Origin: Styela clava
Taxonomy: Eukaryota
Reading direction: 5' to 3'
NCBI RefSeq assembly: GCF_964204865.1
Contig: NC_135255.1
Coordinates: 9,796,001 to 9,860,000 of the forward strand
DNA: 64,000 bases
In this document: positions 20,323 through 51,467 of the stretch, one piece after another
Position numbering within the stretch: position 1 is the first letter of the stretch
How the letters are laid out: the number at the start of each line of letters is the position of its first letter
Notes under the pieces: model-generated
What the model was told of the DNA's origin: nothing
Databases searched by the model: none
Seen by the model: only the letters and a program-made list of their open reading frames with translations
Translations under genes and position numbers: made by a program

Positions 20323-23300
20323 ATGAAGCGGGCAGTGATTAGGGTTCCAAAAGGATCTTTTGTAGTAGAGACTTCAAATAATATCCCAGTTCCGCCCGAA
20401 AATGGAGCAATTGTAAAAGTGAGCTTCTCGTAGTGCATTTTAGGCTCAGAATAGAATAACATTGCCGCGACCATGGGCGGACAATGAAAGAATACTATTC
20501 AATATTTTTCAGAGGATTTCGAACCCATGTTCAGTCAGGCATTGAGTATTAGGATTCGAATATTCGGTAGAATCGAGTTTTCCTTATGAAATTAGGAAAA
20601 TATCTGAATACATGAATATCATATTCAAATCTGTATTGAAAACACTTTGAGCAACTCAAATAAATTTTTTTTAGTATTTGTCTACTCTTAATAAGATTAA
20701 ACATATAGAATATAGATGGATAACACGAAGCAATCGAAATAGATTGACAAATCCATTTATTGGGGACAAAATGGACCGTTTTGGTATCAAAGCCTTTCTC
20801 ATCAACTACTAGACCAATCGCTTTGAAATTTCCAGTTGTTAAAGCTTGGTATTTTTGCTAGCCCTCGTGTCCATATATTTGAGCATTGCTCACTCGTTAT
20901 TATTTCCAAACATGGTTCAATGAAATATTATAACCCTACATCAGTGGTTCTCAAACTTTTTTAGTCTCAGAGCCGCATTTCAAACCTCAAAGCTGTGAAG
21001 AGCCGCACACAAGCAACGCAAGGTAAAATAACAACAAACCTTAAGCGCGTATTTAAAATACCAAGTCCTCGTAACAATAACACACCTAACAACTAGAGCT
21101 GGGCAAAATATTCGAATAATAAAATATTCGAATGCCATTTTACTATTCGAATATCCGGTACCACGTGACCTGCGCCGCTCTGCTTGGACACCGAACTCGC
21201 GCGTCTCCAACTCAATCGTGAATTGTGCGAGATTTCCCACGCCGCTCGCTATCAGAAAAAAAAAGACAAATTTGAAAACTCTTTGTTTTTGCGTTATGGT
21301 GTTATATGCTTATCTTCGCACTTAACGTATCGTTCCAATACATTATTTTGCAAAAAAACGTATCGACCGTTCCGTAAATTTAGAAATGTCAAATCAGATT
21401 AGGTATTTAAAATAAATTTTCCAGATTTTAAACACCGCATGCTTGGTGACATATCATTAGCCATTTCTCGCATTACCGAACATAAAGTTGATTGAAATTA
21501 AATGTTAAAATGACTTTTCGGTGTTTCATTGTGAAAAAGGCAATTTTAGATCGTTAGAAAACTCTAGTTATGTAAATAGCATGGATTTAAAAATGACCAG
21601 AAGTTTTTCCAAAAGCTGGTATGAGTTACTTGTATGAAAAACACTCATTAAATTGTAACCAGATAAGAAATGTCATAAGCCTACTCCCTTTAAAGCACTT
21701 TGTATTAACTCTTTAGTTATCCCTTCCATCCTTGGCCAAGTGATGTTTCGAATATGTAACATTGTACTCGACCATACATGGCCGCTGAGCCAAGAGTAAA
21801 ACGTAAAATTAATCGTGAATTTCGTTGTGACAATGCACACTGACTCGTTCACGAATTGTTGCGTCTATTATCATCGAAAATGATTACAATTGGTAAATTT
21901 CGAAGCAATTGGGCAGTACTAATTAAGTCTTATAGCATGACATAATCAAAATCATTAAGTGAAGTGGTGAATTTGCAAATTCCGTAAAGAAAATTGAGCA
22001 TTACTCAGTAAGTATTTTAGCTATAATAACCATCGGGGTGTTGTTTTGTTGAAAAAAAAAAAACCTTAAAACTTTAGAGAATTAGGTATAATTAGCGTCT
22101 GACCCTCGATTAGGCACAATGGTCTAGGAATGCCTTTATTGCCAATTTATTTAATAGCTTTTTCAAAATCAACATTCAGGATTCACGCAATCGTAAATTT
22201 GCTAGGTTTATCTATCTAATACTAAAATAACACGAACAGCATAAGAAAGCACGAGAAACTCAAGTATCGTTTTAATAAATATCTGCATCTCGGTTACCGT
22301 TCACTTTAAACAGGCACGGTTAATTTACAAGCGTTGATAAGGAAGATCAAATCCAAGACAGGGAATAAAACTCAGAATAAAATTAATTTGGTTTAGAAAA
22401 TCAGCCCGTAATGTATTCAACAGCTGTCGCTGATGTGAACGCAAGGGTATACTAGAAATATGAAACTTCGATATTCGGCGACCGCTTATTCTTGCAAAAA
22501 ACGAGAAAGGGCGGGAATATAGAATACAAACTTTAGGATATCGCCGCCAAAACGATCGCGGTGACAAAGACAATCAGCGATTATGATGAAATCAACCAAT
22601 AACCAATAAAAAAAAAACGCTTTTTTGCCGACGTTTCAATGTTTCTATCAATTTCTAAATGGTGTATCGAACTCCGACGTTCTGGATCCCTGTTATGTAT
22701 TAAAAAAATATTCAAGTTATTCGATTTCAAAAAAGATTAGATTTTGCCCAATCTAGACTAACAGCCATTTAATTTGGCTTTGATTTCTAATAGGTTTGTC
22801 AAAGCGGGTCGTAATCGCGGAGGATGCAAAGTGCAGTAACTGCTTGAGATGATCGCCAGATATTTCGGGACTATTTTCGATTACTGGAACAAAATTAAAA
22901 TGCTCTAGGATTAAAATAATCATTGAGTTATTTGATTTATTAATAATATCCGGGAATGCGACAAACACTGAAAATCCACGGAAGCAAGCCAATGATTACA
23001 GCCATGTCTAAAATCTTGCCAAGTGAAAAGTGTACGAGTGTCTGAGAAACGCTTACTGTTGCGTCACTATTGCATCTTGTAGGTTAGTCAACGCTACGCA
23101 AATAAACACGGGAAATTCATTCGACTAACTAATAGACTTCAGCATTTTAATTTCGAGTCAATGATTAGTTTTCAAAGCATTAACGAGAGCCGCAGGAAAG
23201 GTTGTTGAGAGCCGCTTGCGGCTCTCAAACCCTAGTTTGAGAATCACTGCTCTACATGATTACTATTTTAAAAAAGTAAACATAATAGATCACTGCGACG

Positions 23301-26300
23301 ATATTTTTCCAAAATCACAAATGAAACGCCTCATGCAAAAAGAAATCGGTTTTTAAAAAACAGTGATCTACGAATATATACCTGATTTCAGACAAAGTTT
23401 TGTGGAATATGCCATTCAGATCTTCACATGTGGGAAAAGGAAATAGTGCCATGCCCTAGTGTCTATGGTCATGAAGTTTCTGGAGAACTATATGCATTGG
23501 GAGATAAAGCAGGTTGGTTGCTGCTATAGCATATATATTTTTTTAGGTTTTTAAAATGGGGATACTGGTTGCATGTGGTTTGCTTACATGACGATTAAAA
23601 TTTTAAACACACGTTTGCTTACATAGTGATCATTTAATATATAAATGTATACTTACCTTACCAAGGGAAATTTTGTAATAGTCACAGAATGAGGGATTGA
23701 AAAATTTAAGTGCGAAACTGAGGAAATAATCTCAACCGCCCAAGCCTTTGTTGCTTTTTCAACGATATATATTTTAGTAATTTGATTTATACCAACGTTA
23801 CTGTTAATACAAAATTTTAACCCTGTCGGTCAGTAAATACTCGCAACTCTGTCTTTTCACTTATTGTTGATATCACAATGTACAAACTTTAGAAATAGTC
23901 AATATGAATATTGGTGATAATGTCATGATATATCCATGGATGGGTTGTGGCAAGTGTGACGAATGCACGGAAGATAAAGATAATCTTTGCAACATAAGAA
24001 CGCACGAAGTAGGATGTGGTGCAGATGGAGGGTGAGTTTTTTTTATCTCGATAAAGCCGTGCTATTGAAGTTTAAAAAGTTCACAGTTTGAGAATCAGTG
24101 AACTTTTTTGTTATATTCAAAATTCGCCTTCGTCGTCGCCATTTGGATGAGGTAGAAGCAAAATCAACTCACAACAAATCATAAATTTGTACACATGAGA
24201 TGCTGGTATCAAATTTGAACAAACTATATGTTTGACAGCCCTTTTGCCATTAAAAGTAATAAGGCAGGAAATTCAACCGCTTAATCACATGGCGATTATT
24301 TAGCATGCGTAATGTCTTGAACTTACTAACGTTCACGCCGAGCCACACAAACAATTTAGGAACAACTCTTCTAATAACAATTTTAAATTTAACTCCAGGT
24401 ACTCAAATTACGTTTCTGTTCCTGACACTAAATTTCTTATCAAAGTACCAGACTCAATTCCAATGGATGTTGCTTGTTTGTTACCTTGTTCTGGTGTAAC
24501 CACGTATAGCGCAATTAGGAAGCTCCGACCTTATATTGAGAAAATAAAAAGTACGTTGCTACGATTCAAATATATATATATATAAAAAGCTTTCTGCAGT
24601 GATACAAATATATAAGATTTGTTGCTAGGCCATACCGACTCATAATGCCTTCGGATGAGGTAGAAGATGAATGCATGGCAACGAACTAAGGTTGCTACCA
24701 ATATGTGTATATAGGCCAGCAAAGTAATTAGCAAGGCATTGAACTCTCACCCAAATGGAACTTAATTACAAGCAGAGAATTTACAAGCGATAACTGACAC
24801 GCCAAGATTTACATGTGATTACGATACAGCTACGCACACTTTAGCTATGTTGAACTCAAGTTAGCTGGCCGATTCACCAGTTCCGGGTAACACCCACCAT
24901 CAAAACTCATTTTAGTCTATTATCCAATATCGTATGATAAATTCTGGGAAGAAATACTATTTTTGTTTTCAGGAAAAAGTAGTGTATTGATCGTAGGAGC
25001 GGGAGGACTGGGATTGTGGTGCTTACAATGGGCTAAAATATGTCTACCAGACAGGGTAAAAATCGTATGTGCTGATATAAACGTGAGTATCAATCATTGA
25101 TTATCAGGCTTGTCCAAGGGACACATTTTTCTGTCCCACCCCATGGTAATTTAAGCCTGTCCCATCCCATCCCATGGGATTTCCATTGGAAATACTTTTC
25201 AATAAAAAATTCTGAATTTAGGTTTATTGACTTTGTTAACTTCAAAAATTCAGAACTATATATCACTAACAAGAGAACTATGCTCAAATACATGGACACG
25301 ATTATACGAAGTCCATAGCGAAATATTTGCCGTCAATTCCCCGAAAATAATACGGTATACGGTAATTTTGGATGAAATATCAGATCTCATAGCATTCATA
25401 GAAAATTTAGAAAAAAAAGTAATGGTTTAAAAGGAAAACGATTTTGCAATCGCAATCTTTGTACTTTGTGCCACGATAACATCAATACCTAGACTTTTTC
25501 CCGGAGCAGTGCATCCAGTTCAAAAAACGCCCTGTTATGCTATCGTCGGCGACGTAGCGTAATTGAAGGAGTGAATCCGCAACTTGAATTTTCGACTGAA
25601 AAGAAGGGAATGAATACCGAGACTGAAAAAATGGTGCTATAACATACTATGAATAAAACAAAAATATAAATAACTTTTTTTTTGAGAGCTCCGTGACAGA
25701 TAAAAAATAAACGCTATTTTAACAGGAAAATTTTCGTATGTACCACACACATTATACCAAGTTTCCTCTAGAAACAACACCATAATCACAAAGTTGAAAG
25801 ACAGTTAATTATTAGCGCGATGTACCTTCTTATACATTCTTGAAATAACGCCGGGGTCGCACTCGACTTTTTCCCTCAGAATATGATGATATGAAACTAA
25901 TCAATGTACTACAATAAATTAAACTGCTTCGTATTTTCTCGCAGATCTCGTGGATTTTCTAACGATGGTATTTTAAAATTGATCTCTCGTGGCAGCACTT
26001 CAATAGAGCAAGCCAGTACTGCACGGGCAGCTAAAATTTGGCGGATTTGCATAATGGCAAAAATATGAATTAAAACTAGATATAATCAGGCAGTTTACCA
26101 CGCATACTATTTGAATACAATGCTAAATGAGAACGCAACAAAAACGGAAAATGTGAGGACATTCATAATTCAGAGTAAAATTACAATTAAAATTACGATA
26201 TCGTGAGCTACACAACATGTCAAACTTGTAATATAAACGAGAGGACATCAAACACCGCTTGGCAGGAAATTCAAATCACTTATAATGTACCATGGAAAAT

Positions 26301-27482
26301 AGGTTCAGAATTTTATTCTCCAAGAAATTTGGCAACCAATTGATTACAGATGGACAAATTGAAAGTTGCTTCAGAACATGGCGCTGATGACGTTATATGC
26401 TGGTCGACACAAAAAGAAGAACGTTTAGTTTCAGATGAAGACATCACAAAAGAGTTGATGGAGAAGACAAATGGAGGATTTGATGGTGTTATTGACGTTG
26501 TCAATTCCAGCATGACGTCGAAAAGAGCATTTTCAGCATTGAAGCGGGTAAATACCATTCATTCATAACCCCAACGTAGAGAACATATTTATCTGAATTT
26601 ATGGTGATTTGTATGCTATTTTCATTTATATAGACAGAAATGTCGTTTTCTTAAATTGGTGTAATCATCCATTATACTTTTCTTCTGCAGAACGGTACTC
26701 ATGTTATGGTTGGTTTGTATGAAGGATCGATGAGCATCCCTCTAAGACCTATGGTTCTGACTATGAAGAGAATATTAGGATCGTATGTTGGGAGTATACA
26801 GGAACTGAATGAATTGGTGAAAATGATAGAAACAAGAAAGGTATCATCGATTGTATTAATGCGTTGGATGCTAAGTTCAGAGAGAAAAATCAAGCGTGAG
26901 AAAAATATTATTACAGAAATAAGAAATGTTTTGACTATAGTGTCAGATCAATGTATATATTCTCATTGTTCAGATTCATATATATTCGTTTCTTTGACCG
27001 ACAAAGTTGCTTTGACCAATTGCTTTGAAATTTTCAGTGGTTAAAGATAAAATATTTTTTCAGAATGCTATTATTACTTTTATTTATTCCTAAATTTTCT
27101 AAGAATCTTATGAAATATGATATTTCATCCAAATTTGCGCTGTATTGTTTTTTAATTATGGGAACACGGTTTTTAATTCGCCAAGCGTGACGGCTGACTG
27201 TGAAAATTCTTGCGATTAAAAACTCGGAAGTTTTTTGAGGGTACGTTACCGGTAATGTCAAAGGTAAGGACTGCTTCGCTCTGGTCCACGTGTCCATCAT
27301 TTTGAGCGTTGCTCTCTTGTAATTAGCAAATTAGCGTTTTTGATATTCAAGTTTCAACTGTTTTTGCTTTAATATAGGTGAAACCACCTCCAATTATTCC
27401 GTACAAACTGGAAGAAATCGAGACAGCGTGGGTAGCACTAAAATCAGGAAAAATGCCCGGAAGAGGCGTTATTCGGTACTGA
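20323..27482 (+). CDS. Zn-dependent alcohol dehydrogenase (MDR family), paralog 1 (356 aa, 8 coding exons)
   Basis: Exons 20323-20418, 23392-23512, 23893-24031, 24399-24550, 24973-25082, 26350-26547, 26691-26840, 27378-27482. Motifs CGICHSDLH, GHE, structural-Zn CGKCDEC..NLC, LPCSG, GAGGLG, ADIN, GSYVGS. AATAAA at 27502. Confidence 0.92.
20942..23249. mobile_element. Non-autonomous hAT-type element in ADH paralog 1 intron 1
   Basis: TIRs cagtggttctcaaac / gtttgagaatcactg. 8-bp TSD ccctacat / ctctacat. Subterminal gagccgc repeats. No transposase ORF. Confidence 0.8.
21094..22757. mobile_element. Second putative hAT-type element nested within the 20942-23249 element
   Basis: Ends tagagctgggcaaaat / attttgcccaatcta(ga), with ttcgaata subterminal repeats. 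Flanks ctaacaac / ctaacagc resemble an 8-bp TSD. Confidence 0.55.
25105..25190. mobile_element. Terminal relic of a DNA transposon (cccat-rich subterminal repeats)
   Basis: caggcttgtccaagggacac...gtcccatcccatcccatggga in ADH1 intron 5. The opposite end was not found. Confidence 0.35.
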
Positions 27483-28882: not shown

Positions 28883-31800
28883 ATGAAACGTTTAGAAATT
28901 CCGAAACCGAAAGATCCAATGGTTGTTCGGACGTTTGATACAATACCAAGTCCACCCGAGGGAGGTGTGGTTATTAAGGTGAGAAATAGGTGAATAAAAC
29001 TAGTGTAAACAGGGCTGTGGACTCCAAAATTTAAACTACGCTTTTAAAAGAAAACCACTCCAGGTCGATGGAAATAACAACTCCAAAATCACGAAAAAAT
29101 TATATATTGACAACAGAAAACTTTGGCATCCTTTTAATGAATAAAATGTTAAAAACGGCTTTTTTTTTATTTTTGTAAAAAAATTTTGATCTCAATTATC
29201 ACTATTAAACATCTGAAATACCGAATTTAATGAGTTTAGAATTGTAATTTTATTGAAATTAGCTATTTCAGGACTGAATAGGTTAACATAAAATTTACGA
29301 TACTAGATTTTTATTAAGCACTCTTGATTCTGATTATTGTTGCTATATTTTGTAGGTGGAAAAAATAAACGAAATAAATTCTTATCATTTTAAACAACGT
29401 TGATTATATATGTATGCATTTTAGCACGTTTCGCAGACAGCAGCAAATAAGCGCTATAAAAAAATTACGAATTTTTTCTCAAACTTATCTACCGATTACA
29501 CTAAACACACATTATATATATTCCAGACTGCTTTCTGTGGTATTTGTCACTCCGATCTCCACTTTGTTGACGATGAATGGATAATAGGAAATCATGACAA
29601 AATAACTTGCGAAGAAATGAATCCTCGGCTTCAATATCCTCTCGTACTGGGACACGAAATATCGGGCATTGTTCACGCAATTGACGGGGACGAAAAGGGT
29701 AAAGTGATGAACTGTTTGGAGTTGGATGAATCCTTTTTTCCTAAAACTGTTTCGAATTTTTTCATGCGTTTACACATTTATATTCATGGTTAAATAAGCC
29801 AAAGAAAGAGAATATAGAGCCAGAGAATATAATCTCCATACGTATAAGATAAATTTTTTAAGATGATTAAATATAGATTCCTATCACCACGAGTCCTGCA
29901 CAGACCTACCACGATGTAAACCGAAAAGAACTCTTGATATTACCATATATTTTTTAGACGACCTCAAAGTGGGAGATAGAGTAATTGTTTATCCTTGGCT
30001 TGCATGTAATAATTGTGACTTCTGTGCTACTGATTTTCCAAACTTTTGCTACGGCCCATCCTACAGTATTGGTTGCTCTGGATCAAACGGCGGGTAAGAA
30101 AATTTGCATATTGAACAAATAAGTGAAAAACACTTTGTAGTCGAGATTCTCTTATATAATAACGGCTGAAGATGATGTTCTATAAGAAAAAATGCTTAGT
30201 TATATGATGTCTGGAATGTTGATATTAGTTAATCTTTGTTCAGCAAAAGCGGTTAAGATTTAGAGATATACTTGAGTAGGCAAATCTCTCAGTGTTTAAC
30301 TGACGCGTGTATTCACGAATTTCAACTCGTGTCACCATTTGCTTCAGAAGTATATTAGTTGATGTGTTGTTCATTTATCAATATGAACTGATATTTAATT
30401 TTTTTTTAATTCCAAGTTATGCGCAGTATGTCACAGTACCAAAGAAGAGTTTCGTATTAAAGATACCCGATACAATACCGTTAGATATTGCCTGCATGTT
30501 GCCTTGTTCTACGTTAACCGGATATAATGCTGTAACTAAAGTAAAACCCACTATCGAGAAGTTTATCAAACTTCAAGGTAAGATACTATAAGTGAAAAGT
30601 GGTTGCAAATATATTTTATTAAAGATACTGAGACTTGTATTCAATTCAATATTTGTGCTTCAAACTATACGATCACAATTATCCAATTCAAAATGGGTGT
30701 GATATACATTCTGGCCTTTAATATGATGTATACTAATATATAAATTAATATTAAATGAAAATATACACTACAGTTCCATACCCGATTACTAGCTATCAAT
30801 TGCGCTTATGACATTTACATACCGAGGTGAAAAGTACCAGTTTTAGATCAATTAGTACTACGAGTATGCAATCTTTCACAGCCTTCTAGCGACAAATACA
30901 ATCTTTAACCACTGACAATTTAAAGAAAATGGTCTAATAATTAAAGAGAATGCGATTTTTTCCTAACAACAATAACATTAAAACGATCCATATGTACACT
31001 CCGTGTTCTATAAATGCTTTATAAATATGTAAGGATAACAGCAATTGCGATCCACGAAAAGAGAGCGTACCATTTAAATCGAACCGCAGTACCATGACCC
31101 AATAAGATCGTAAATAGGAACTATGAAACTTATAACGGGTCGTTGTCAAAATCACAATACAACAAAAATTTGAAGATTCCAAGTGAAGTCGTTAAAATCA
31201 TAATTTTTATCATTTTCGTGTTGCACTTTTTAGGAGAGGCTACGTTGCTCATCATTGGCACTGGGGGATTAGGATTATGGTGCCTGCAAACAGCCAGGGC
31301 GTCTCTACCGAAAGGCACTCGCATCATATGTGCGGATATAAATGTAAGTCACAATGAAACGTGATTTTTACGTGGTCTGTCCGTGAACCTCGAAGAGAAT
31401 ATCTCACAAATACTGCTTTAATTGACAGCTATAGGCATCACAAATTATGAAAAAAACTGTATTATCTCGAAATATGAATTAGATATCCAGTCGGTACCCA
31501 TAGAAATTATCTATACAAATCTATGCATCAAAAAAGATTTAGTCTGGCAGAACCTCGTTTCAGGACATAACGTGTTTTTATTGTTTAGCAATATTCTTGA
31601 TGACATAAATATTGATATCCAGGTGGGTGTGGAGCTCATAATGTTGAGCCATTTTTTTTTAAATAAATTTTCATTTGCACACATGAGCGAAAATTCAACC
31701 CTCCAAAAATCTGCATTCTCAAATATTATTCAATATTTTTCTGTTTATATAAACAAATATGTCATAACTACGTAAGTATTTTTTAGAGAAAAACTACTTT

Positions 31801-37095: not shown

Positions 37096-37113
37096 CCTTA
37101 TAGGAAAACTAGA

Positions 37114-37119: not shown

Positions 37120-37331
37120 GCAGGCTCTGTATGCAGAAATTTATTTCACATATAGGTGTGAAAGTTTTGGGCTTACATTCATATCTTAAGTTTTAGAACT
37201 TAAGAAGTGAGCTCGCTTACATTCACGGTACAAAATAAAATAATCTAAATTAATGTAATATTCTCAATAGTGAGTAGAAACTTTTTATTCATAAGTTGAG
37301 TAATCGGACACAAAACTTAGACGAATCCATC

Positions 37332-40300
37332 ATGAAACGAATGGAAATTCCTTGTTCGAAAGAACCAATGATATTAAAAGACATTGATACGATTCCAGAA
37401 CCACCGAAAGGTGGAGTTACAATTAAGGTAAAGAACAGTTTGGTCGATTAGTTTGTTAGCAATAACTGCAAGTATGTGATTATATACGTATATGTATTTA
37501 TGTCGGAATATTTATATATATCTTGATGCCAGGGTTCAATATCCCCTTTGTTGTTAAGTATCACTGTTTTGTAAAATTATATTTCATTATAAATTATCTA
37601 TGTTTTGCTAACATGGAATCCATAAGTCTATGTACGAAAAAAGAGAATAATTTGTTATCAATTTTGGCCCGATGTTTTTAGGTTTTTATTTTGCACTGTC
37701 GCGAAATAGTATACTATAGTTGTCTGTTAATATATACAATCAATCCCAAAAGAATTCCAGTCAGAGTTATACATCAACAACCTAAAACAAATCTCAAGTA
37801 TATCGACGATTTGAATTCCATATTGTGAAATGATTTGACATTCTTGTGAAACACACTTTTGTATTAATCCAGGCAGCTTTTTGTGGAATATGTCACTCAG
37901 ATGTTCACATGTTCGATGATGAATTTGATATTGGTGGAGGGATATTTCTGAAGACACAGGATATCAATCCAAATGTAGAATATCCAATCGTGCTGGGGCA
38001 TGAAATATCTGGGACCGTTCATGCTATTGGAGAAGAAGCCGGTGAACGCGTAAATTTTTATAAAATACAGTATTTCAAATGATGATAGTAGAAGTAGACA
38101 ATAAAATATGACACAAATGCAATTGTTGATGAGTGCAAATGTATATACCGTAGTTCTTGAACCGAATCAAAAATGGTTTAGCGCCGTTTTAAATGAACAC
38201 CAAAATAAAGTAGCGACAAGGCTATCATTCAGACCATACAATCATATTCAGGAGATGATTTTAATAAATTTGTATTTAGATAATACGGACTTGAAAGTTG
38301 GTGACAGAGTTATTGTCTATCCATGGCTTGGCTGTAGTGACTGCGGATTATGCGATGGAGAACAAGCAAATTTTTGTTGTGGACAATCAAATTATATTGG
38401 ATGCTCTGGACCTAATGGCGGGTAAATATCTTATGTTGAGCTTCACTCACTCACTATATATCAAATTTGGGTGGTATATTTCGTTTTATTCTTTCCTATT
38501 TTTACACTTTATATGTTTTTTACAAAATAAAAATAATTCAATTGTATGCATTTCTTGCTCTAGATATTCTGAGTACATGAAAGTTACCAACCCAAAATAC
38601 GTGCTAAAATTGCCTGACAATATACCATTGGATATCGCAGCAATGCTGCCATGTTCAGCACTAACCGGATATAACGCTGTATCAAAAGTGAAACCAACAA
38701 TAGAAAGATTCATCAACGCCAAAGGTATATCATTGTATTTCAGTCTTTTAGTTTGTAGAAGGCCTATAATTTTAACCCGTACTTCTCGGTTCGGTACAGT
38801 TCAAAATAAATATTACATACAAAGGTTGAATGATTTAGGTTTACTCCCGTGAAAATATTTCTATGGATGGCTATAGCAGTCAGGCGTCAAAAATGTAAAC
38901 GATCTTGTTTACTAACATTGAATTTACAAAATTCAACAACGCTATCTTTGATATGCGCTATCAACAATTTTGTCTTATCGAAAAAATTCTTGAATAAGAG
39001 TGATCTTACATGGGGAAAGTAAATATTTGTTTTAGAATGTAAAATATCCGGTTCAGCGAACGGCATTGCAATGAATTACAAACGGATTTGTTTCAATCGC
39101 ATCGAAGTAATTTGAGTGTCGCAGAATATAAAACCCACGATCTTTGCGTGTCATAGTCTGAACAAGCTCCATTTGGTAGCTAACTGATCTATGCCTCTTG
39201 GAGTGTTTCAGTCGTTCTTTTACCTCTATTATATAATTCAAACCAATGTTATATATGAAACATACCTAATGCAATACAGTAATCCGAATGACGCATATAA
39301 TAAAATTTCCTAGCTTCGCTGTTTCATTATGCTTTGATACTTTGACATATTATCAGTCGTGAAATTGCGGTACCTGTTAAGGTGTTACTAATTTATTGTC
39401 AGCTCCTGTGCAGTGATACGAGACTATAAAATTATCGTGTTGGCACCGAGCGGTGATAAAAAACTTACATAGCAAATAATGAACAATTGAATTTAAAACG
39501 AAATGGGAGCAATCATCTGATTTTCTATATAAAGTTCGAGGTTTTTACCACTACAAAGGCGTACCGACAATTGAAAGAATGTTTTATTAAAATCAAACAA
39601 ACAGACAGACGATTTACCAATGATACATCAAATATAAAATACCGCATACATACAATACTACTAATGTATAATGTACCAGTTACATTTATTAAACAAGTTT
39701 GAGCAAATCGATTCGCTGGACCTCATCTGTAAGGCAGAATCACAAGCTGCCATTGGCAGGCCGGCATTTTTATAACTATGTATCCTTGAAGGTGACCGTA
39801 CATTTGAACCCATGTGTATATCCCGGGGTTCAATCAATATGCGTGTGCTAAAACCCATGGGTTAGTATGAGTTCAAATATCTGCAAAACAAAAAATTTCC
39901 ATAGGTGCAATAGTCGGTTCAAATGTACAGGAACCATCCTTGAAAACTAGATGATAGTAAATAAATTACGTTCCCATAACAAATCATTGAAGTACACATG
40001 TCCACGACCATGTAATGACCATTTATGGACGTTACCCTTCTCCAAAACAAAAAGTAGCAAGAGTATTGGTGTCGGCTGGTAGTGATTATTAATATCATGT
40101 TCTCACAAGTTAATATAATTCTATAACATTGATATACCAGAAACAATTTGAAGCATCTGCTAGACTTTGGACATTAATCATGATTTTGTACTTTATGAAG
40201 GTAAAGCTACTTTGCTAGTTATTGGAGCAGGAGGACTTGGATTGTGGTGTCTACAAACGGCAAAGGCAGTTTTACCGGAAGGAACGCGGATAATAATCTC

Positions 40301-42766
40301 CGATATAAGTGTAAGTGGATGGCGAGTTTTTTTTTTCAGTTTGGAGTCAGTTACACTACCGATTGTAAAAGAAAACTTTTTCAAAAGAAAAAATGCACAT
40401 GTATATTCAAAAGTGATTATGCGTGCAAGAAACTAATATGAAAATGCCACCTTAGTGGGTGAAACTTCGAAAGAGTCCATGAAATACAAAAATTATCAAA
40501 TCAGATTACCGGTAATATTATTAAACTGACAACATTAAAATGGCATTTGCTATACTTCAAATTGCTTTTTTTCTAATTTAAGCATGGGCCACTGCAAAAG
40601 AGTAGAAATAAGAAAGATAAACAGCCAATGAATAGAAAACTAATTGTATATGTACTTGGGATAGTTTTTGGTCAAATTCAAATGTCTTTTAATATGATAA
40701 TTTTGTGTAATTTTATTCAAGCAACCTAAATTAGAAAATGCTCTTGCACACGGTGCGGATGACACAGTTTTGTGGGATCCTTCTTTCAGTAAAGAAGATA
40801 TAATAAACAAAACAAAAGAGAAAGGAAGTGATGGCTCTATTCAAGCCGTTATAGATTTTGTCAACTCGGCTGCAACATCATCAAGAGCTATGGGAGTTCT
40901 TTCGAAGGTATGATTAATTCAGCTAAAATCACGCAAAAAAGATTGAATGTCCGTCGACAATTCCTATATTCTACGCAACAGTGTATCTCAAATGTACCCA
41001 GCGAGTATAGCCAACTTAGGAAAAGGTTTGGTTTAATGATTCAAGTTCAGCATCAACCTTTTATTTTAGGGTGGTACTATTGCTATGGTGGGATTATTTG
41101 GCGGATCATTAGAAATCTCCCTGCCATTGTTTGCATTTCTTCTTCAACAAATTCATGGAGTATTTGTCGGTTCTCTGGATCAATTAAAAGAACTTGTACA
41201 ATTAGCTTCAAATACCAAGGTAATGTACATTTAAACAAGCCGGTAGGCGCCCAGGATCTCCGCTGATAGTTGAGGCCCGCACTCAGGCAACCGGTTACCA
41301 CCCATAGAAACCTGAGGATCTCTAACGGCAGCGCGATTCAGAAAATGAGTGGGTTGTTACCGTAACTTGCGAAAAAAAAAATAAAAATTTCATAAAGATC
41401 GGCGTGTTTTTCGTTGTTATCATGGGAACGAAACTTCAATCCGGACTTTCCAAAAACGCAACTTAATAGGGTGATGGCATAATCGACGTGTAAAATTTCA
41501 TCCAGATTGGTCCAGCTGTTAAGACGCTACATCTAAACAGACAGACAGATACACAGACAGAACAAGCCGGTAGGCGCCCAGTTAGATTTCCGCCATTGCT
41601 TGAGGCCCGCATTATTTCAGTTTACTAACGGATAATAGGAGACACTACTAAAAACGCTAGTTCATTTCAAACGCAGCGCGTTTCGTAGACTCACTCGCGT
41701 GACTGGTATATTGTAACTGAAAATTAAAAAATAATCTTCAGTAAAATCCCTAAGGCTCCTCCAGTTTATGAAGTAACGAGATCAAAGATAACTTATTGGA
41801 AAGAGTATTTTGCTATGCGGAAGGTAGCGTTCTTGGAATTTTAATTTTCGACTTGGTTGGCGAGAAAACGGCGATATGTTGTGAAAAAAATTTCATAACG
41901 ATCGGCGCGTTTTTCGTTGTTACCATGGAAATGAAACCTCCATCCGGACTTTCCATAAAACGCAATACTAGGGTGGCTTGATAACCCATGTGAAAAATTT
42001 CATCCAGATTGGTCCAGCCGTTAAGACGCTACATCTAAACAAACAGACAGACAGATATACCGACAGACAAGCCGCTAGGCGCCCATCAGGGTCTCCGCTG
42101 ATAGTTGAGGCCCTCACTTAGGCGCGACCGGTTACCATCTATGAAAACTTGCGCAGGAAATTGCGACAGATTCTCAAAAAATTAGAAATTTCTCGACGAT
42201 TGGATGTTATTTGGTTGGTGCCATGGAAACGAAACACCAATCCAGCCTTTCGAGGAAACGAATAATACTAGGATGACAGGTTAACCTACATGAGAAATTT
42301 CATCCAAATTGATCCAGCCGTTTAGAGGCTACATATAAACAGACAGACAGGACGACTGAGAATAAGGGTCTCCTATAGAGCGGAGATCCAACAGACAGAA
42401 TGACTGATAATAAGGGTCTCCTAGAGCGGAGATCCAACAACTGATAATAAGGGTCTCCTAGAGCGGAGATCCAATATAAACAATTGTGGTTTCATAAATA
42501 GTAACAGAAAACGCGATAATGGGACACGAATAAGTTTAAGAAGTAATCTCTTTTGGTACTTGACCGACCTTCTCAATGAATCGTTTTTTAATATCCTTGA
42601 TAGCGCGGAAAAAGTCGAATAACATTAACAAACACACAATATATTTTCATTCGATGTACAGCTGAAGCCACCTGAGATATCTCATGTCAAGCTTGAAGAG
42701 GTGCCAGAGATGCTAGCAAAGCTGCGTAGAGGCGAAATCACCGGAAGAACCTTAGTGAAGTTTTAA
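37332..42766 (+). CDS. Zn-dependent alcohol dehydrogenase (MDR family), paralog 3
   Basis: Exons 37332-37427, 37873-38041, 38280-38421, 38564-38724, 40201-40310, 40722-40907, 41070-41219, 42662-42766. Motifs CGICHSDVH, FDIGGG, PIVLGHE, VYPWLGCSDCGLC..NFC, LPCSALT, GAGGLG, IDFVNSAATS, MVGLFGG. Confidence 0.93.
39791..39935. mobile_element. Mutator-type MITE (145 bp) in ADH3 intron 4
   Basis: TIRs ggtgaccgtacatttgaacc / ggttcaaatgtacaggaacc. Perfect 9-bp TSD atccttgaa on both sides. Confidence 0.85.
41234..42474 (-). mobile_element. Three nested DINE-1/Helentron-like (HINE) elements in ADH3 intron 7
   Basis: Three left ends acaagcc..taggcgccca (41234, 41561, 42067), each followed by a core ending aaatttcatcca.attg.tccagc + (acag)n. 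Three right ends aataagggtctcc..agagcggagatccaa finish at 42391, 42437 and 42474. Subterminal inverted repeat ggatctccgct / agcggagatcc. Confidence 0.8.
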
Positions 42767-43286
42767 TATGAAGCGTTGTTCAATTTAAGGGACTAATGAA
42801 TTCATTATTTCACCTTCAAATGATTAATATTATTTAGAATAGTAGCTATAAGTTTTCGTAAGGCCCAGCAAAATCAATACTGACAAACTTTGGAATAATG
42901 ATACAAACCAATAATTTCTGAATTGTTTTCATTCTACTATACTATTCCAACGTTTAATTTTTAAGGTTTTTAACTTATTCATGTAACGTTTGATTTATTG
43001 ATCTTGAGATATATACCATGTGCAACACGCGTCATATGATCAAAAATATATATATAATTCATCTTGAGGCAGATAATCAAACATACATGCATAATAAAAC
43101 ATACAAAAATGAAGAAAAAAAAACACGTTTAAGTTTGTTGGAAGAAGATATGGGCAGTGGGCAGTTGACATATATTCGATTTTTTTCTATTCGACACGAA
43201 CAATATTTCACACTTGTGCAACGACAGAACAACCAGATTGCAATTACCGTCGCCAGTTCTATACCTTATCTAAACTCAAACATTCG

Positions 43287-43669
43287 GAGAATGTGATCAA
43301 TGTCTTTATGCGTTATGCGTTCATCTAAACTCCAAAACCACCATGACTAAAATCATTCTCAGGTGAACGACGTTGACATCAGTTTCTTTTCTGCCAAGCG
43401 GGTTAGATTTGACCAGAAAGCAAAATTGGCCAAGTTTGGGATTCTGTCGAAGGAAAAGCCGAGCAGTCCCAATCGCAAGATTCCCTTGAATTGTATACTA
43501 AAAAGCTTATACTATTTTGTCTGTGGTTTGCTTTTGCATTCCATAATAGGTCGTAAAAACATTATACAATTCTATACATTTATTTTTTTCGGAATGGCGA
43601 ACAGGGGGGCCACGAGTGCAAAAAGACGCCGGAAGGGAGCCACGAGCCATAAAAGGTTGGGAACCACTG
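43287..43669. mobile_element. Right half of the hAT MITE carried at the duplication junction
   Basis: Matches 34706-35088 and ends ggttgggaaccactg + ttgtagag. The left TIR is absent. Confidence 0.85.
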
Positions 43670-44186
43670 TTGTAGAGTATGATGAACACGTCCGGAGAAT
43701 AAATTTTGCTTCCATTAATGTTTTAAATACACTAATGAAAAATAGTAGGTGAAAGATCTGACGCAATTCTGACATAAATAGTATAAAAAATGTCACGGAC
43801 TTCTTCATTTCATTCTTGCTGTGATCAACGACGCGGGTCTCGTCAGATATTACTAAGTAGAATTCCTGGGCAATGGGATTTCAAACAGCTGTAGAACGCA
43901 GCGACATGGTCATTTGTAGCTGATTAGCTATATAGCGTGCTTTTGACTTATTAGCATGCCCTTATAGGAAAACTAAGTATAAAGCAGGCTCTGTATTCAG
44001 AATTTTTTTTTGCCATGAAAGTATGAAAGTTTTGGGCTCACATTTTTTCATTCATATCTTAAGTTTCACAACTAAAGAAATGACTTCGCTTACAATTACG
44101 GTACAAGATAACTTAACTTGAATTTATGTAATATTTTCAACCATTTTTATAAGTTGAGTAATCAGATACGAAACTCAGAATCCATC

Positions 44187-44281
44187 ATGAAACAAATGGG
44201 AATTCCTTTTTCGGAAGAACCATTGGCACTAAAATACATTATACGGTTCCAAAACCACCGAAAGGCGGAATTACAGTTAAG
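44187..44281 (+). pseudogene. Orphan, frameshifted ADH exon 1 (copy b)
   Basis: Duplicate of 35621-35715 with the same 1-nt deletion (95 nt). Confidence 0.85.
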
Positions 44282-45089
44282 GTAAAGAACAACTAAGTCA
44301 ATTAGCTTATTAGTAATAACTACAAGTCTGTGACGTAATTGCGTTATATTCTGGTACGTTAAGGTATTTATATCAAAATATTTATCTATCTTGACGCCCG
44401 TGGGCCGTAGTTTGGTGACCCCTGCTTTAGAGCGCGCCCAATGATGAAGTTTCCCATTTCCGCTTCGAATCGATTCGTAAATCCAAAAGTGGCATCCCTA
44501 TTCATGACACTTTAAAGATTTAGTTTGATTGAACTGAACTATATGGGTAATAAAAGATCCGAAGTGAGATGGCAATCAAATCAAACATTTAATGCCAGTA
44601 CTTGAATTATGCGTACGAAATAGAAGTTGCGGGCACGTCTGTGAGGTCGGAATTCGGCGTTACTGGCTATAGACTGAGTGATATTTCAAAACTTTCGACT
44701 TTGGAGTCTAAATGTAATTTTTTTAAGCCGAGAATTTCGGTACTTCTGAAACCAGAGACCACATATGAACTAAGAAACATGTTCGTTTTCACTAATGTTT
44801 AACCACACTCGCATAGTGATATTGCTGGTGGGCAATTCAATAGTGTAGCGTATGATGAACCCAGACGGAGAATAACGGATTTTGGTTTCATAAATGTTGA
44901 GCAAACACAGTAAACAAATATTGTGAAAGTTATGGTTGCATTGTGATCAATGACGCGAGTCTTGCGAGATATTACTAGGTAGCATTGCTGTTCTAAGGGA
45001 TTTTCAACAGGTGTAAAACGCAGCGACATGGTTATTTGTAGATGATTAGCTATAGATCATGCTTTTGACTTATCAGCATGCCCTTATAG

Positions 45090-45582
45090 CAGGGATGTGC
45101 AACCTTTTTCACTGGCGGGCCAAATTTAAGTAACTGAATGAAGCCGCGAGCCGCACTGTTATTTAATATAGACTTTCTAGTAGTTACAGGCACAAAATTG
45201 TTTATTTTTGCTAGTCACCTTACGGCATTATTAGGGCTCCTATAGAAATAGTGAGTTAAACGAATAAACTTCTGAAGGGACTGCTATTTAAATTTATCGC
45301 GCCACCGACTTTAATTCAATTCAGTGGAAAACACGTTTTTGTAATAAATATTGTATTTTTTGCAACAGAATTTTGCTAGTTTTGCTAATATGACAGTGGC
45401 ACTCAGGTTCTGGTATAGGCTTTGTGGCGCAGTAGGATTAGAATTGCTCGCACGTACCAGATAACATAAACTAAATACTCGATTCGCGGACACACCATCC
45501 AAAATTGTTATTTTTCTGCGAGCCGCACAAATTTTTTCTGCGAGCCGCATTTGGCCCGCGGGCCGCAGTTTTCACACCCGTG
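45090..45582. mobile_element. hAT-type MITE upstream of ADH4 (duplicate of 36600-37095)
   Basis: TIRs cagggatgtgcaac / gttttcacacccgtg. Perfect TSD ccttatag on both sides. Confidence 0.88.
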
Positions 45583-45822
45583 CCTTATAGGAAAACTAGG
45601 TACAAAGCAGGCTCTGTATGCAGAAATTTATTTCACATGTAGGTGTGAAAGTTTTAGGCTTACATTCATATATATCTTAAGTTTCAGAACTTAAGAAGTG
45701 AGCTCGCTTACATTCACGGTACAAAATGAAAGAATCTAAATTAATGTAATATTCTCAATAGTGAGTAGAAACTTTTTTTTCATAAGTTGAGTAATCAGAC
45801 ACAAAACTTAGACGAATCCATC

Positions 45823-48800
45823 ATGAAACGAATGGAAATTCCTTGTTCGAAAGAACCAATGATATTGAAAGACATTGATACGATTCCAGAACCACCGAAA
45901 GGTGGAGTTACAATTAAGGTAAAGAACAGTTTGGTCGGTTAGTTTGTTAGTAATAACTGCAAGTATGTGATTATATACGTATATGTATTTATGTCGGAAT
46001 ATTTATATATATCTTGATGCCAGGGTTCAATATCCCCTTTGTTGTTAAGTATCACTGTTTTGTAAAATTATATTTCATTATAAATTATCTATGTTTTGCT
46101 AACATGGAATCCATAAGTTTATGTACGAAAAAAGAAAATAATTTATTATCAATTTTGGCCCGATGTTTTTAGGTTTTTATTTTGCACTGTCGCAAAATAG
46201 TATATATACTATAGTTGTCTGTTAATATATACAATCAATCCAAAAAGAATTCCAGTCAGAGTTATACATCAACAACCTAAAACAAATCTCAAGTATATCG
46301 ACGATTTGAATTCCATATTGTGAAATGATTTGACATTCTTGTGAAACACACTTTTGTTTTAATTCAGGCAGCTTTTTGTGGAATATGCCACTCAGATGTT
46401 CACATGTTCGATGATGAATTAGATATTGGTGGAGGGATATTTCTGAAGACACAGGATATCAATCCAAATGTTGAATATCCAATCGTGTTGGGGCATGAAA
46501 TATCTGGGACCGTTCATGCTATTGGAGAAGAAGCCGGTGAACGCGTAAATTTTTATAAAATACAGTATTTCAAATGATGATAGTAGACAATAAAATATGA
46601 CACAAATGCAATTGTTGATGAGTGCAAATGTATCTACCGTAGTTCATTAACCGACTCAAAAATGGTTTAGCACCGTTTTAAATGAACACCAAAATAAAGT
46701 AGCGACAAGGCTATCATTCAGACCATACAATCATATTCAGGAGATGATTTTAATAAATTTGTATTTAGATAATACGGACTTGAAAGTTGGTGACAGAGTT
46801 ATTGTCTATCCATGGCTTGGCTGTAGTGACTGCGGATTATGCGATGGAGAACAAGCAAATTTTTGTTGTGGACAATCAAATTATATTGGATGCTCTGGAC
46901 CTAATGGCGGGTAAATATCTTATGTTGAGCTTCACTCACTCACTATATATATATCAAATTTGGGTGGTATATTTCGTTTTATTCTTTCCTATTTTTACAC
47001 TTTATATGTTTTTTACAAAATAAAAATCATTCAATTGTATGCATTTCTTGCTCTAGATATTCTGAGTACATGAAAGTTACCAACCCAAAATACGTGCTAA
47101 AATTGCCTGACAATATACCATTGGATATCGCAGCAATGCTGCCATGTTCAGCACTAACCGGATATAACGCTGTATCAAAAGTGAAACCAACAATAGAAAG
47201 ATTCATCAACGCCAAAGGTATATCATTGTATTTCAGTCTTTTAGTTTGTAGAAGGCCTATAATTTTAACCCGTACTTCTCGGTTCGGTACAGTTCAAAAT
47301 AAATATTACATACAAAGGTTGAATGATTTAGGTTTACTCCCGTGAAAATATTTCTATGGATGGCTATAGCAGTCAGGCGTCAAAAATGTAAACGATCTTG
47401 TTTACTAACATTGAATTTACAAAATTCAACAACGCTATCTTTGATATGCGCTATCAACAATTTTGTCTTATCGAAAAAATTCTTGAATAAGAGTGATCTT
47501 ACATGGGAAAAGTAAATATTTGTTTTAGAATGTAAAATATCCGGTTCAGCGAACGGCACTGCAATGAATTACAAACGGATTTGTTTCAATCGCATCGAAG
47601 TAATTTGAGTGTCGCAGAATATAAAACCCACGATCTTTGCGTGTCATAGTCTGAACAAGCTCCATTTGGTAGCTAACTGATCTATGCCTCTTGGAGTGTT
47701 TCAGTCGTTCTTTTACCTCTATTATATAATTCAAACCGATGTTATATATGAAACATACCTAATGCAATACAGTAATCCGGATGACGCATATAATAAAATT
47801 TCCTAGCTTCGCTGTTTCATTATGCTTTGATACTTTGACATATTATCAGTCGTGAAATTGCGGTACCTGTTAAGGTGTTACTAATTTATTGTCAGCTCCT
47901 GTGCAGTGATACGAGACTATAAAATTATCGTGTTGGCACCGAGCGGTGATAAAAAACTTACATAGCAAATAATGAACAATTGAATTTAAAACGAAATGGG
48001 AGCAATCATCTGATTTTCTATATAAAGTTCGAGGTTTTTACCACTACAAAGGCGTACCGACAATTGAAAGAATGTTTTATTAAAATCAAACAAACAGACA
48101 GACGATTTAACAATGATACATCAAATATAAAATACCGCATACATACAATACTACTAATGTATAATGTACCAGTTACATTTATTAAACAAGTTTGAGCAAA
48201 TCGATTCGCTGGACCTCATCTGTAAGGCAGAATCACAAGCTGCCATTGGCAGGCCGGCATTTTTATAACTATGTATCCTTGAAGGTGACCGTACATTTGA
48301 ACCCATGTGTATATCCCGGGGTTCAATCAATATGCGTGTGCTAAAACCCATGGGTTAGTATGAGTTCAAATATCTGCAAAACAAAAAATTTCCATAGGTG
48401 CAATAGTCGGTTCAAATGTACAGGAACCATCCTTGAAAACTAGATGATAGTAAATAAATTACGTTCACATAACAAATCATTGAAGTACACATGTCCACGA
48501 CCATGTAATGACCATTTATGGACGTTACCCTTCTCCAAAACAAAAAGTAGCAAGAGTATTGGTGTCGGCTGGTAGTGATTATTAATATCATGTTCTCACA
48601 AGTTAATATAATTCTATAACATTGATATACCAGAAACAATTTGAAGCATCTGCTGGACTTTGGACATTAATCATGATTTTGTACTTTATGAAGGTAAAGC
48701 TACTTTGCTAATTATTGGAGCAGGAGGACTTGGATTGTGGTGTCTACAAACGGCAAAGGCAGTTTTACCGGAAGGAACGCGGATAATAATCTCCGATATA

Positions 48801-51467
48801 AGTGTAAGTGGATGGCGAGTTTTTTTTCTCAGTTTGGAGTCAGTTACACTACCGATTGTAAAAGAAAACTTTTTCAAAAGAAAAAATGCACATGTATATT
48901 CAAAAGTGATTATGCGTGCAAGAAACTAATATGAAAATGCCACCTTAGTGGGTGAAACTTCGAAAGAGTCCATGAAATACAAAAATTATCAAATCAGATT
49001 ACCGGTAATATTATTAAACTGACAACATTAATTTAAATGGCATTTGCTATACTTCAAATTGCTTTTTTTCTAATTTAAGCATGGGCCACTGCAAAAGAGT
49101 AGAAATAAGAAAGATAAACAGCCAATGAATAGAAACTAATTGTATATGTACTTGGGATAGTTTTTGGTCAAATTCAAATGTCTTTTAATATGATAATTTT
49201 GTGTAATTTTATTCAAGCAACCTAAATTGGAAAATGCTCTTGCACACGGTGCGGATGACACAGTTTTGTGGGATCCTTCTTTCAGTAAAGAAGATATAAT
49301 AAACAAAACAAAAGAGAAAGGAAGTGATGGCTCTATTCAAGCCGTTATAGATTTTGTCAACTCGGCTGCAACATCATCAAGAGCTATGGGAGTTCTTTCG
49401 AAGGTATGATTAATTCAGCTAAAATCACGCAAAAAAGATTGAATGTCCGTCGACAATTCCTATATTCTACGCAACAGTGTATCTCAAATGTACCCAGCAA
49501 GTATAGCCAACTTGGGAAAGGTTTGGTTTAATGATTCAAGTTCAGCATCAACCTTTTATTTTAGGGTGGTACTATTGCTATGGTGGGATTATTTGGCGGA
49601 TCATTAGAAATCTCCCTGCCATTGTTTGCATTTCTTCTTCAACAAATTCATGGAGTATTTGTCGGTTCTCTGGATCAATTAAAAGAACTTGTACAATTAG
49701 CTTCAAATACCAAGGTAATGTACATTTAAACAAGCCGGTAGGCGCCCAGGATCTCCGCTGATAGTTGAGGCCCGCACTCATGCAACCGGTTACCACCCAT
49801 AGAAACCTGAGGATCTCTAACGGCAGCGCGATTCAGAAAATGAGTGGGTTGTTACCGTAACTTGCGAAAAAAAAACTAAAAATTTCATAAAGATCGGCGT
49901 GTTTTTCGTTGCTACCATGGGAACGAAACTTCAATCCGGACTTTCTATAAAACGCAACTTAATAGGGTGATGGGATAATCGACGTGTAAAATTTCATTCA
50001 GATTGGTCCAGCTGTTAAGACGCTATATCTAAACAGACAGACAGATACACAGACAGAACAAGCCGGTAGGCGCCCAGTTAGATTTCCGCCATTGCTTGAG
50101 GCCCGCATTATTTCAGTTTACTAACGGATAATAGGAGACACTACTAAAAACGCTAGTTCATTTCAAACGCTGCGCGTTTCGTAGACTCACTCGCGTGACT
50201 GGTATATTGTAACTGAAAATTAAAAAATAATCTTCAGTAAAATCCCTAAGGCTCCTCCAGTTTATGGAGTAACGAGATCAAAGATAACTTATTGGAAAGA
50301 GTATTTTGCTATGCGGAAGGTAGCGTTCTTGGAATTTTAATTTTCGACTTGGTTGGCGAGAAAACGGCGATAAGTTGTGAAAAAAATTTCATAACGATCG
50401 GCGCGTTTTTCGTTGTTACCATGGAAATGAAACCTCCATCCGGACTTTCCATAAAACGCAATACTAGGGTGGCTTGATAACCCATGTGAAAAATTTCATC
50501 CAGATTGGTCCAGCCGTTAAGACGCTACATCTAAACAAACAGACAGACAGATATACCGACAGACAAGCCGCTAGGCGCCCATCAGGGTCTCCGCTGATAG
50601 TTGAGGCCCTCACTTAGGCGCGACCGGTTACCATCTATGAAAACTTGCGCAGTTACCGAAATTGCCTGTTCATTTTGAACGCTGTGCGTCTGCTTTTCAT
50701 CGTTGCGGGAGGAATAAAATGTGGCTAATTATTGAAAATTCCCAGAGCTTCGCCAATTTACAAGGTATCGAAATGAATGGCGGCTTGTTAGGGAAAGCAT
50801 TTTTTTCCGCGAAGGGTAGCAATCTCAGAATTTTAATTTTCGACTTAGTTTACGAGGAAATTGCGACAGATTCTCAAAAAATTAGAAATTTCTCGACGAT
50901 TGGATGTTATTTGGTTGGTGCCATGGAAACGAAACACCAATCCAGCCTTTCGAGGAAACGAATAATACTAGGATGACAGATTAACCTACATGAGAAATTT
51001 CATCCAAATTGATCCAGCCGTTTAGAGGCTACATATAAACAGACAGACAGGACGACTGAGAATAAGGGTCTCCTATAGAGCGGAGATCCAACAGACAGAA
51101 TGACTGATAATAAGGGTCTCCTAGAGCGGAGATCCAACAACTGATAATAAGGGTCTCCTAGAGCGGAGATCCAATATAAACAATTGTGGTTTCATAAATA
51201 GTAACAGAAAACGCGATAATGGGACACGAATAGGTTTAAGAAGTAATCTCTTTTGGTACTTGACCGACCTTCTCAATGAATCGTTTTTTTAATATCCTTG
51301 ATAGCGCGGAAAAAGTCGAATAACATTAACAAACACACAATATATTTTCATTCGATGTACAGCTGAAGCCACCTGAGATATCTCATGTCAAGCTTGAAGA
51401 GGTGCCAGAGATGCTAGCAAAGCTGCGTAGAGGCGAAATCACCGGAAGAACCTTAGTGAAGTTTTAA
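45823..51467 (+). CDS. Zn-dependent alcohol dehydrogenase (MDR family), paralog 4 (near-identical to paralog 3)
   Basis: Exons 45823-45918, 46368-46536, 46769-46910, 47057-47217, 48694-48803, 49218-49403, 49565-49714, 51363-51467. Amino-acid differences seen versus paralog 3: DEFDI>DELDI and LLVIG>LLIIG. Confidence 0.92.
48284..48428. mobile_element. Mutator-type MITE, duplicate copy
   Basis: Same TIRs and 9-bp TSD atccttgaa as 39791-39935. Confidence 0.85.
49729..51174 (-). mobile_element. Three nested DINE-1/Helentron-like elements in ADH4 intron 7
   Basis: Left ends at 49729, 50057 and 50563; right ends at 51091, 51137 and 51174. The innermost element retains ~204 bp (50653-50856) that is missing in the ADH3 copy. 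Confidence 0.8.

Follow-up and report, generated by a model that had tools for sequence, protein, structure and literature searches.

The window analyzed here is a 64,000-nucleotide stretch of the Styela clava genome (contig 6, positions 9796001-9860000 of a 377-Mb assembly), and it encodes a tandem array of four intact zinc-dependent alcohol dehydrogenases (ADHs) of medium-chain dehydrogenase/reductase (MDR) type, designated g1 to g4, all on the + strand between 20323 and 51467. The genes are best explained as tandem duplicates of a zinc MDR family common to sponges, deuterostomes, and protostomes, which probably descends from the last common ancestor of animals and would function as a broad-specificity NAD-dependent alcohol/aldehyde oxidoreductase; we give this reading a probability of about 0.7. 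Although new, they fall in an MDR group of microbial type that is already known and also holds the Sulfolobus ADH and ChnD-like bacterial proteins, and within it they belong to an ancient animal branch. We regard the family as an ancient, patchily kept, and repeatedly duplicated invertebrate ADH family with ordinary chemistry.

The genes were delimited by a six-frame motif scan and by models built from coordinates. Each has 8 exons, GT..AG introns, zero internal stops, and introns of phases 0,1,2,1,0,0,0 at matching residues, in agreement with an earlier description drawn from the letters of the window (the sequence-only reading), which had listed four 8-exon genes with common intron positions and phases:

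20323..27482, + strand: g1, intact zinc MDR alcohol dehydrogenase of 356 aa without the substrate-lid insert; exons 20323-20418, 23392-23512, 23893-24031, 24399-24550, 24973-25082, 26350-26547, 26691-26840, 27378-27482
28883..33569, + strand: g2, intact zinc MDR alcohol dehydrogenase of 371 aa; exons 28883-28978, 29527-29698, 29958-30093, 30417-30577, 31234-31343, 32448-32633, 33003-33152, 33465-33569
37332..42766, + strand: g3, intact zinc MDR alcohol dehydrogenase of 372 aa; exons 37332-37427, 37873-38041, 38280-38421, 38564-38724, 40201-40310, 40722-40907, 41070-41219, 42662-42766
45823..51467, + strand: g4, intact near-copy of g3, 372 aa; exons 45823-45918, 46368-46536, 46769-46910, 47057-47217, 48694-48803, 49218-49403, 49565-49714, 51363-51467

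Among public Styela clava protein models, P0004 is g1, P0001 is near-identical to g2, and P0002 is close to g4. Protein identity is 44-46% between g1 and the others and 65% between g2 and g3/g4; because the g3 and g4 proteins are 99.5% identical, the array is better read as three distinct paralogue types than as four. Introns 3, 5, 6, and 7 of g3 are skipped in contigs from runs X1 and X3, whose RNA label is a guess, and some of these contigs carry the letters of related copies on contig 5 instead of those of g3. No single X1 or X3 contig aligned to g3 was shown to skip introns 1, 2, or 4. Spliced transcripts of g3 type appear to exist, if these runs are indeed RNA. Production of protein is shown for one or more tunicate members by a 13-residue peptide in a table of an ascidian hydrolysate (C30, PMC12028738), which matches the Ciona member P0011.

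A search with P0002 retained 1119 of 6060 candidates at 1e-40, and among the best 120 of those 1119 all 24 rows with animal names rank above the first named prokaryote. The named relatives come from Ciona (2 species), Clavelina, Branchiostoma, Lingula, Owenia, and Liolophura, to which a profile search added Acanthaster and Halichondria. An exhaustive search of cluster representatives gave at least 150 rows without an organism name. Of 29 nameless rows looked up, 10 could be assigned to an organism (Acanthamoeba, Balamuthia, Entosiphon, Corticium, Sycon, Ptychodera, Ascaris, Gordionus, Watersipora, and Owenia). The family spans three sponge classes, an echinoderm, a hemichordate, amphioxus, tunicates, several lophotrochozoans, and nematoids. 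Like Styela, the genomes of Ciona, Owenia, Lingula, and Branchiostoma each hold several paralogues. Among the matches listed, most of which are nameless, none bears the name of a vertebrate, insect, cnidarian, fungus, or choanoflagellate. A search of Atlas clusters led from P0002 to bacterial and nitrososphaeran clusters and from P0314 to Ascomycota clusters, as leads only.

In the final tree (57 of 73 chosen rows; LG+C20 PMSF; bootstrap not fully settled), the Styela genes belong to an animal clade with support of 100/100, within which bilaterians group at 95/90 with the sponges outside. ChnD-like bacteria form a separate clade (99/96), and the Styela genes are not nested among bacterial ChnD. 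The rows left out of this tree are ADH3 (class III ADH), TDH (threonine dehydrogenase), L101, L100, L151, L017, L098, L014, P0005, P0015, P0022, P0027, P0033, and P0199, together with P0282 and P0291, two putative protist rows that had fallen among bacteria; in a quick tree of all 73 rows, with long-branch outgroups, TDH fell inside the eukaryote group. In approximately unbiased (AU) tests, for which both constrained groups were named after the tree had been seen, placement of tunicates outside other animals is rejected (p-AU 0.018), and a grouping of animals with ChnD-like bacteria is not rejected (log-likelihood lower by 12.9; p 0.267). The Styela proteins are 41-49% identical to those of amphioxus, chiton, and brachiopod, vs. 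32-33% to ChnD-like proteins.

The introns point in the same direction, with positions in other species read from breakpoints in faulty or alternative protein models rather than from genomes. Breakpoints of amphioxus models fall on Styela intron positions 1, 4, 5, and 6: P0010 lacks exactly Styela exon 6, breaks just after the residue that corresponds to intron 4, and picks up again at intron 1; P0224 lacks roughly that exon too; and P0257 resumes at intron 5, but its gap starts at a position not used in Styela. Isoforms of Ptychodera switch at Styela introns 1 and 6. At least four of the seven intron positions thus likely predate the tunicate-amphioxus split, and two likely predate the deuterostome split. 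Scans of metagenomes and genome contigs gave mostly prokaryotic MDRs, and no intron-bearing animal locus among the matches listed. The best matches, the clade, and the introns are largely those expected of an old vertically inherited animal family; no fungal or choanoflagellate row is named inside the clade, whose span as documented here runs from sponges to tunicates. Patchy retention, which the sequence-only reading had put in brackets beside horizontal acquisition, is the part of its proposal on origin that is supported.

For the deep origin, inheritance from a pre-animal eukaryote is on balance favored over one transfer into the animal stem. Such a transfer, by which a ChnD-like bacterium or a nitrososphaeran archaeon would have supplied the gene before sponges diverged, with introns gained later and the array and chemistry unchanged, is the strongest alternative, although we consider it less probable than inheritance. 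It is disfavored by the best tree, in which animals join the two amoebae Acanthamoeba and Balamuthia and one nameless row (81/87), followed by Entosiphon (81/93), in species-tree order; the 81/93 support for all eukaryotes holds only when P0282 and P0291 are left out. Moreover, 19 of the 29 nameless rows looked up returned no organism, and unicellular holozoans may hide among them. Stem transfer is nevertheless compatible with the AU test, and it fits the lack of any fungal or choanoflagellate row named in or beside the animal clade among the matches listed, the separate nesting of putative protist rows among bacteria, and the mismatch between breakpoints in the Balamuthia model and the Styela introns. 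Several rows of the sponge clade are also full-length on long ENA contigs, as would fit intron-poor genes (read from protein calls).

Several observations weigh against inheritance from the animal ancestor as set out above. The sister relation to amoebae is weak and is absent from the quick tree of the same rows; raw identity is higher to prokaryotes (38-40%) than to sponges or amoebae (34-36%); and the order among bilaterians departs from the species tree, a sign of hidden paralogy. Intron sharing was read from protein models rather than genomes, and none of these breakpoints concerns positions 2, 3, and 7. In one bilaterian subclade, about eight partial rows open with intron-like letters, start at around residue 65, and continue without a break to the C-terminus, so that this subclade appears to have a different intron layout; variants of the Balamuthia protein break at positions that do not match Styela introns. 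Lastly, SKL-like peroxisomal C-terminal tripeptides occur in the nameless or protist rows P0291, P0292, P0296, P0312, P0314, P0324, P0282, P0230, and P0310, and all of these but P0310 nest among bacteria in wider trees. These rows are probably protists, and their position among bacteria points to repeated transfers in the group; the eukaryote members are probably not one clade, and a transfer somewhere in deep time is likely. The Styela proteins lack an SKL-like tripeptide.

The array proteins, g1 among them, carry the Pfam domains PF08240 (ADH_N) and PF00107 (ADH_zinc_N) over cut-off, corresponding to the GroES-like catalytic and Rossmann domains. The catalytic zinc ligands Cys39, His75, and Cys166 with Glu76 (of the GHE motif), the structural-zinc ligands Cys107/110/113/121, the proton-relay residues (Ser41 and His44), and the NAD-site residues (GxGxxG Gly198/200/203 and Asp224) are kept, and all ligands are present in g1, g2, g3/g4, and one contig-5 copy. 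The predicted structure (pLDDT 93) has as its best fold match in the PDB the Sulfolobus ADH (TM 0.86, 34% identity). The spacing from catalytic Cys to His, which measures the lid insert, is 36 in g2, g3/g4, and one contig-5 copy, and 20 in g1; in the compared set it is 33-36 in most ChnD-like bacteria, nitrososphaeran archaea, amoebae, and other animals, and 21-22 in AdhP, CAD, and ADH3. The short form in g1 is read as a secondary loss. The motif set that the sequence-only reading had quoted is a composite: DIGGG is confined to g3 and g4 and GSYVGS to g1, and the insert is found in g2 and g3/g4 but is absent altogether from g1. Bacteria, archaea, amoebae, sponges, and amphioxus commonly have an Arg in the D/E-R-G/P motif of the insert, whereas every Styela copy has another residue there; any role for this residue is a guess.

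Kinship with ChnD-like and Sulfolobus-type proteins, rather than with animal ADH1/3 or sorbitol dehydrogenase, was claimed from the letters and is borne out by PDB matches, tree, and profile scores. A profile that we built from 14 ChnD-like bacterial rows scores the Styela proteins at 288-313 bits, vs. 165-203 bits for AdhP (8 rows) and 132-143 bits for CAD (14 rows), although the ChnD-like rows had been found by likeness to the query, which biases the score in their favor. The Styela genes group with ChnD-like and Sulfolobus-type proteins apart from AdhP/CAD at 98/94, with only three outgroup rows. The family call of the sequence-only reading, cd08240, which we take to be the CDD accession of the ChnD group, appears fair at group level; the accession was found in no paper in a literature search. 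No NCBIfam family reaches its cut-off for the five proteins scanned; the top model for all five is AdhP (134-174 bits vs. a cut-off of 344), the tetrameric yeast-type ADH, which lacks the lid insert (spacing 21), and the ADH3 model TIGR02818, listed for 4 of the 5, gives 76-91 bits vs. a cut-off of 544.

The NAD-dependent Sulfolobus ADH (PDB 2eer, 1jvb) is also the best PDB sequence match (E 1.8e-44), and shares with the Styela proteins the catalytic zinc triad and the NAD-type Asp; both also have a lid insert following the catalytic Cys, as well as the motifs VxPW and VGLFG. It differs in being only 32-35% identical, in an insert shorter by about 6 residues, in a gene without the seven introns of Styela, and in the first structural-zinc ligand, which is Cys in Styela and Glu in the archaeal enzyme (PMC2792335). 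The ChnD-like plasmid genes of Polaromonas JS666 and Rhodococcus DN22 share the 33-36 residue spacing, most motifs, and the larger clade, but are 28-33% identical to the Styela proteins, fall in separate subclades, and have an operon context that Styela lacks. These two homologues adjoin genes for a hydrolase, a flavin monooxygenase, and a short-chain dehydrogenase, in the layout of a cyclohexanol cluster; they are putative ChnD, assigned by this neighborhood only. Animal class III/I ADH and sorbitol dehydrogenase have the same MDR fold and two-zinc chemistry, but the Styela proteins are only about 26% identical to the ADH3 of their own genome and lack the long class I/III insertion after the structural-zinc loop. 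Their distinctness from classic animal MDRs, also proposed from the letters, is supported by separate ADH3, TDH, and sorbitol-dehydrogenase-like genes in the genome. The tunicate MDR threonine dehydrogenase, already published as a candidate for transfer, is likewise bacteria-like and patchy in animals, with the same ambiguity between transfer and loss (PMC13390645); it is of a different family (24-27% identity to the Styela proteins), and is reported absent from other deuterostomes (PMC13390645), unlike the Styela ADH family, which occurs in amphioxus, a hemichordate, and an echinoderm.

By analogy with MDR chemistry, the catalytic zinc held by Cys39, His75, and Cys166 would polarize the alcohol, Ser41 and His44 would relay the proton, and hydride would pass to NAD, for which Asp224 argues over NADP; the second zinc (Cys107/110/113/121) would be structural. 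The pocket is predicted to be hydrophobic and most like that of the generalist archaeal enzyme. Substrates may, more tentatively, be medium-sized hydrophobic alcohols and aldehydes from food and microbes, with copies perhaps arising by unequal crossing-over and then diverging in the lid over the substrate channel. This lid is lost in g1 and rewritten between g2 and g3. Birth-and-death evolution is typical of enzyme families that handle diet and xenobiotics. Because the variation and loss of the lid, and the several copies in many invertebrates, form such a pattern, broad alcohol/aldehyde turnover is somewhat favored over specificity for omega-hydroxy acids or another narrow role.

Retention of ChnD activity, by which the enzymes would not be generalists but would serve a specific lipid pathway by oxidizing omega-hydroxy fatty acids, seems unlikely. 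The lid insert and several motifs common to ChnD-like proteins speak for it, as do the profile scores; animals, moreover, make omega-hydroxy acids by P450 omega-oxidation. Acinetobacter ChnD oxidizes C6-C12 omega-hydroxy acids (PMC13495136). However, identity to ChnD-like proteins is low, the same group holds the generalist Sulfolobus ADH as the best structural match, and the insert Arg is replaced in every Styela copy. There are also no chn-type neighbors, the flanks being lectin-like and Sushi/VWA genes, a weak test given that animals keep no operons.

Amplification has continued in Styela, as the sequence-only reading had supposed, with six copies of three ages. A genome search with exon 4 gave six candidates, and 6 of 6 matched, comprising the four array genes and two on contig 5 (C5:15702839-15714651, L002-L003); the latter form a tail-to-tail inverted pair, both intact and with the same eight exons. 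Synonymous distance (dS) is saturated among g1, g2, and g3, about 0.2 between g3/g4 and the contig-5 copies, which derive from the g3/g4 lineage and have introns still alignable to it at 74-88%, and 0.02 between g3 and g4. The Styela copies are under purifying selection, with dN/dS of 0.11-0.39 in the 7 of 15 pairs with unsaturated dS. Self-BLAST resolves the two units below; two orphan exon-1 copies, one toward the start of each unit, are listed with them:

34706..43286, + strand: tandem unit 1, which holds g3
43287..51988, + strand: tandem unit 2, which holds g4; head-to-tail, junction 43286/43287
35621..35715, + strand: orphan frameshifted exon-1 copy of 95 nt, with upstream region and splice donor
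44187..44281, + strand: second orphan exon-1 copy, also frameshifted, which the tandem duplication copied along with its unit

The units (about 8.6 kb each) have 132 mismatches across 8472 aligned columns, and the coding regions of g3 and g4 differ by 5 synonymous and 2 replacement changes. The region upstream of the first orphan exon can be aligned with the 5' regions of both contig-5 genes as well, and the orphan is likely a relic of an older partial duplication. Contigs of the DNA-like runs X10 and X11, both from one study, end exactly at 43286, indicating indirectly that the reads hold two continuations, as expected of a tandem junction. We therefore read g3/g4 as a recent 8.6-kb head-to-tail duplication, with a copy number taken indirectly from this contig break. 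That g3 and g4 are instead two alleles of one gene misassembled in tandem, leaving a three-gene array and an overstated ongoing amplification, is improbable. The divergence of 1.6% between the units falls within the range of allelic differences in ascidians; the same DNA runs contain both sets of variants, with the g4 letters at 28 of 33 checked differences, and no contig among the matches listed bridges the junction. X10 and X11 may, moreover, be the source of the assembly itself, which weakens the contig-break argument. Against misassembled alleles, these contigs stop exactly where junction and downstream flank diverge, and the two contig-5 copies independently show amplification.

Acquisition from microbes within the tunicate or filter-feeder lineage, followed by gain of seven introns, as the sequence-only reading had preferred, has in its favor the clear likeness to microbial enzymes and the lack of vertebrate or insect names among the matches listed, but is largely refuted and has a negligible probability: the genes sit inside the 100/100 animal clade, tunicates outside other animals are rejected, identity to other animals exceeds that to ChnD-like proteins, and intron positions appear to be shared and older than the deuterostome split. 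Nor do the 14 candidates for transfer into Ciona tabulated in PMC13390645 include the family, although any gene with a hit in amphioxus would have been removed by the screen used there.

No description of this animal ADH family was found in the literature searched, with subscription journals mostly outside coverage. A survey of amphioxus reports a single Adh (ADH3) and treats ADH1/4-type activities as vertebrate innovations (PMC3184775), a statement that concerns the classical family only. With the present family, tunicates, amphioxus, and many other invertebrates gain several further zinc ADHs whose active sites are intact, and these may be candidates for invertebrate oxidation of ethanol, dietary alcohols, or retinol. 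Transfer screens can take the family as a warning, as it looks microbial beside vertebrate and insect genomes and yet is animal-wide; the chemistry and the tandem array are themselves ordinary. A "novel ADH" of amphioxus (bioRxiv 10.1101/2022.05.18.492404), 64% identical to an Anaerolineae protein, was considered as a further member and is likely of another family, given that identity. Intronless MDR frames elsewhere in the Styela genome were ruled out as fresh transfers; they read as TDH, ADH3, and two zinc-free MDRs (presumptively named), all unrelated.

Within the animal family, one subclade (100/100) is conserved even though its members have lost the catalytic His together with the entire structural-zinc loop. 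It spans nematodes, horsehair worms, and a bryozoan (P0287, Ascaris; P0308, Gordionus; P0284, Watersipora), with further rows L014:559-1518, L016:67-906, P0264, P0307, P0311, and P0316, and is likely a pseudo-enzyme or regulatory paralogue. C. elegans ZK829.7, listed as an ADH, may be the nematode member. The zinc-free paralogue was not found in the Styela genome, where the 6 matches of 13 candidates are the six known copies. A more far-reaching proposal, which we hold to be a long shot, is that the family is a second, microbe-derived animal zinc ADH family gained once in the stem, which would supply the class I-like alcohol (possibly retinol) oxidation supposedly missing from invertebrate chordates, have disappeared from vertebrates when ADH3 gave rise to ADH1, and early on have produced the conserved zinc-free pseudo-enzyme of nematodes, horsehair worms, and bryozoans.

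Other MDR genes of the genome include single-exon open frames for class III ADH (L009:1233-2423) and MDR threonine dehydrogenase (L008:1188-2285), at least four sorbitol-dehydrogenase-like genes (contig 16 has three of them and contig 6 has one), and, on contig 8, two inverted copies of a further, unassigned zinc MDR (these last two sets being rows L174-L176, L012, and L178). A bacterial promoter scan of the window gave nothing informative. Intron 7 of g3 and g4 (41227-42480 and 49735-51180) contains a high-copy interspersed repeat with 37-base tandem units and very high DNA depth, and intron 6 of g2 contains a tandem pair of 143 bases at 32643-32939. Upstream of the array, window positions 12291-13242 and 18164-18436 (+ strand) hold C-type-lectin-like exons, with a weak Pfam match in 1 of 3 frames. 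Downstream, 56941-59862 (+ strand) holds a single frame of 810 codons in which 8 Sushi repeats exceed the threshold, and a VWA-like exon comes after it; a Sushi exon of 810 codons is unusually long for such a protein.

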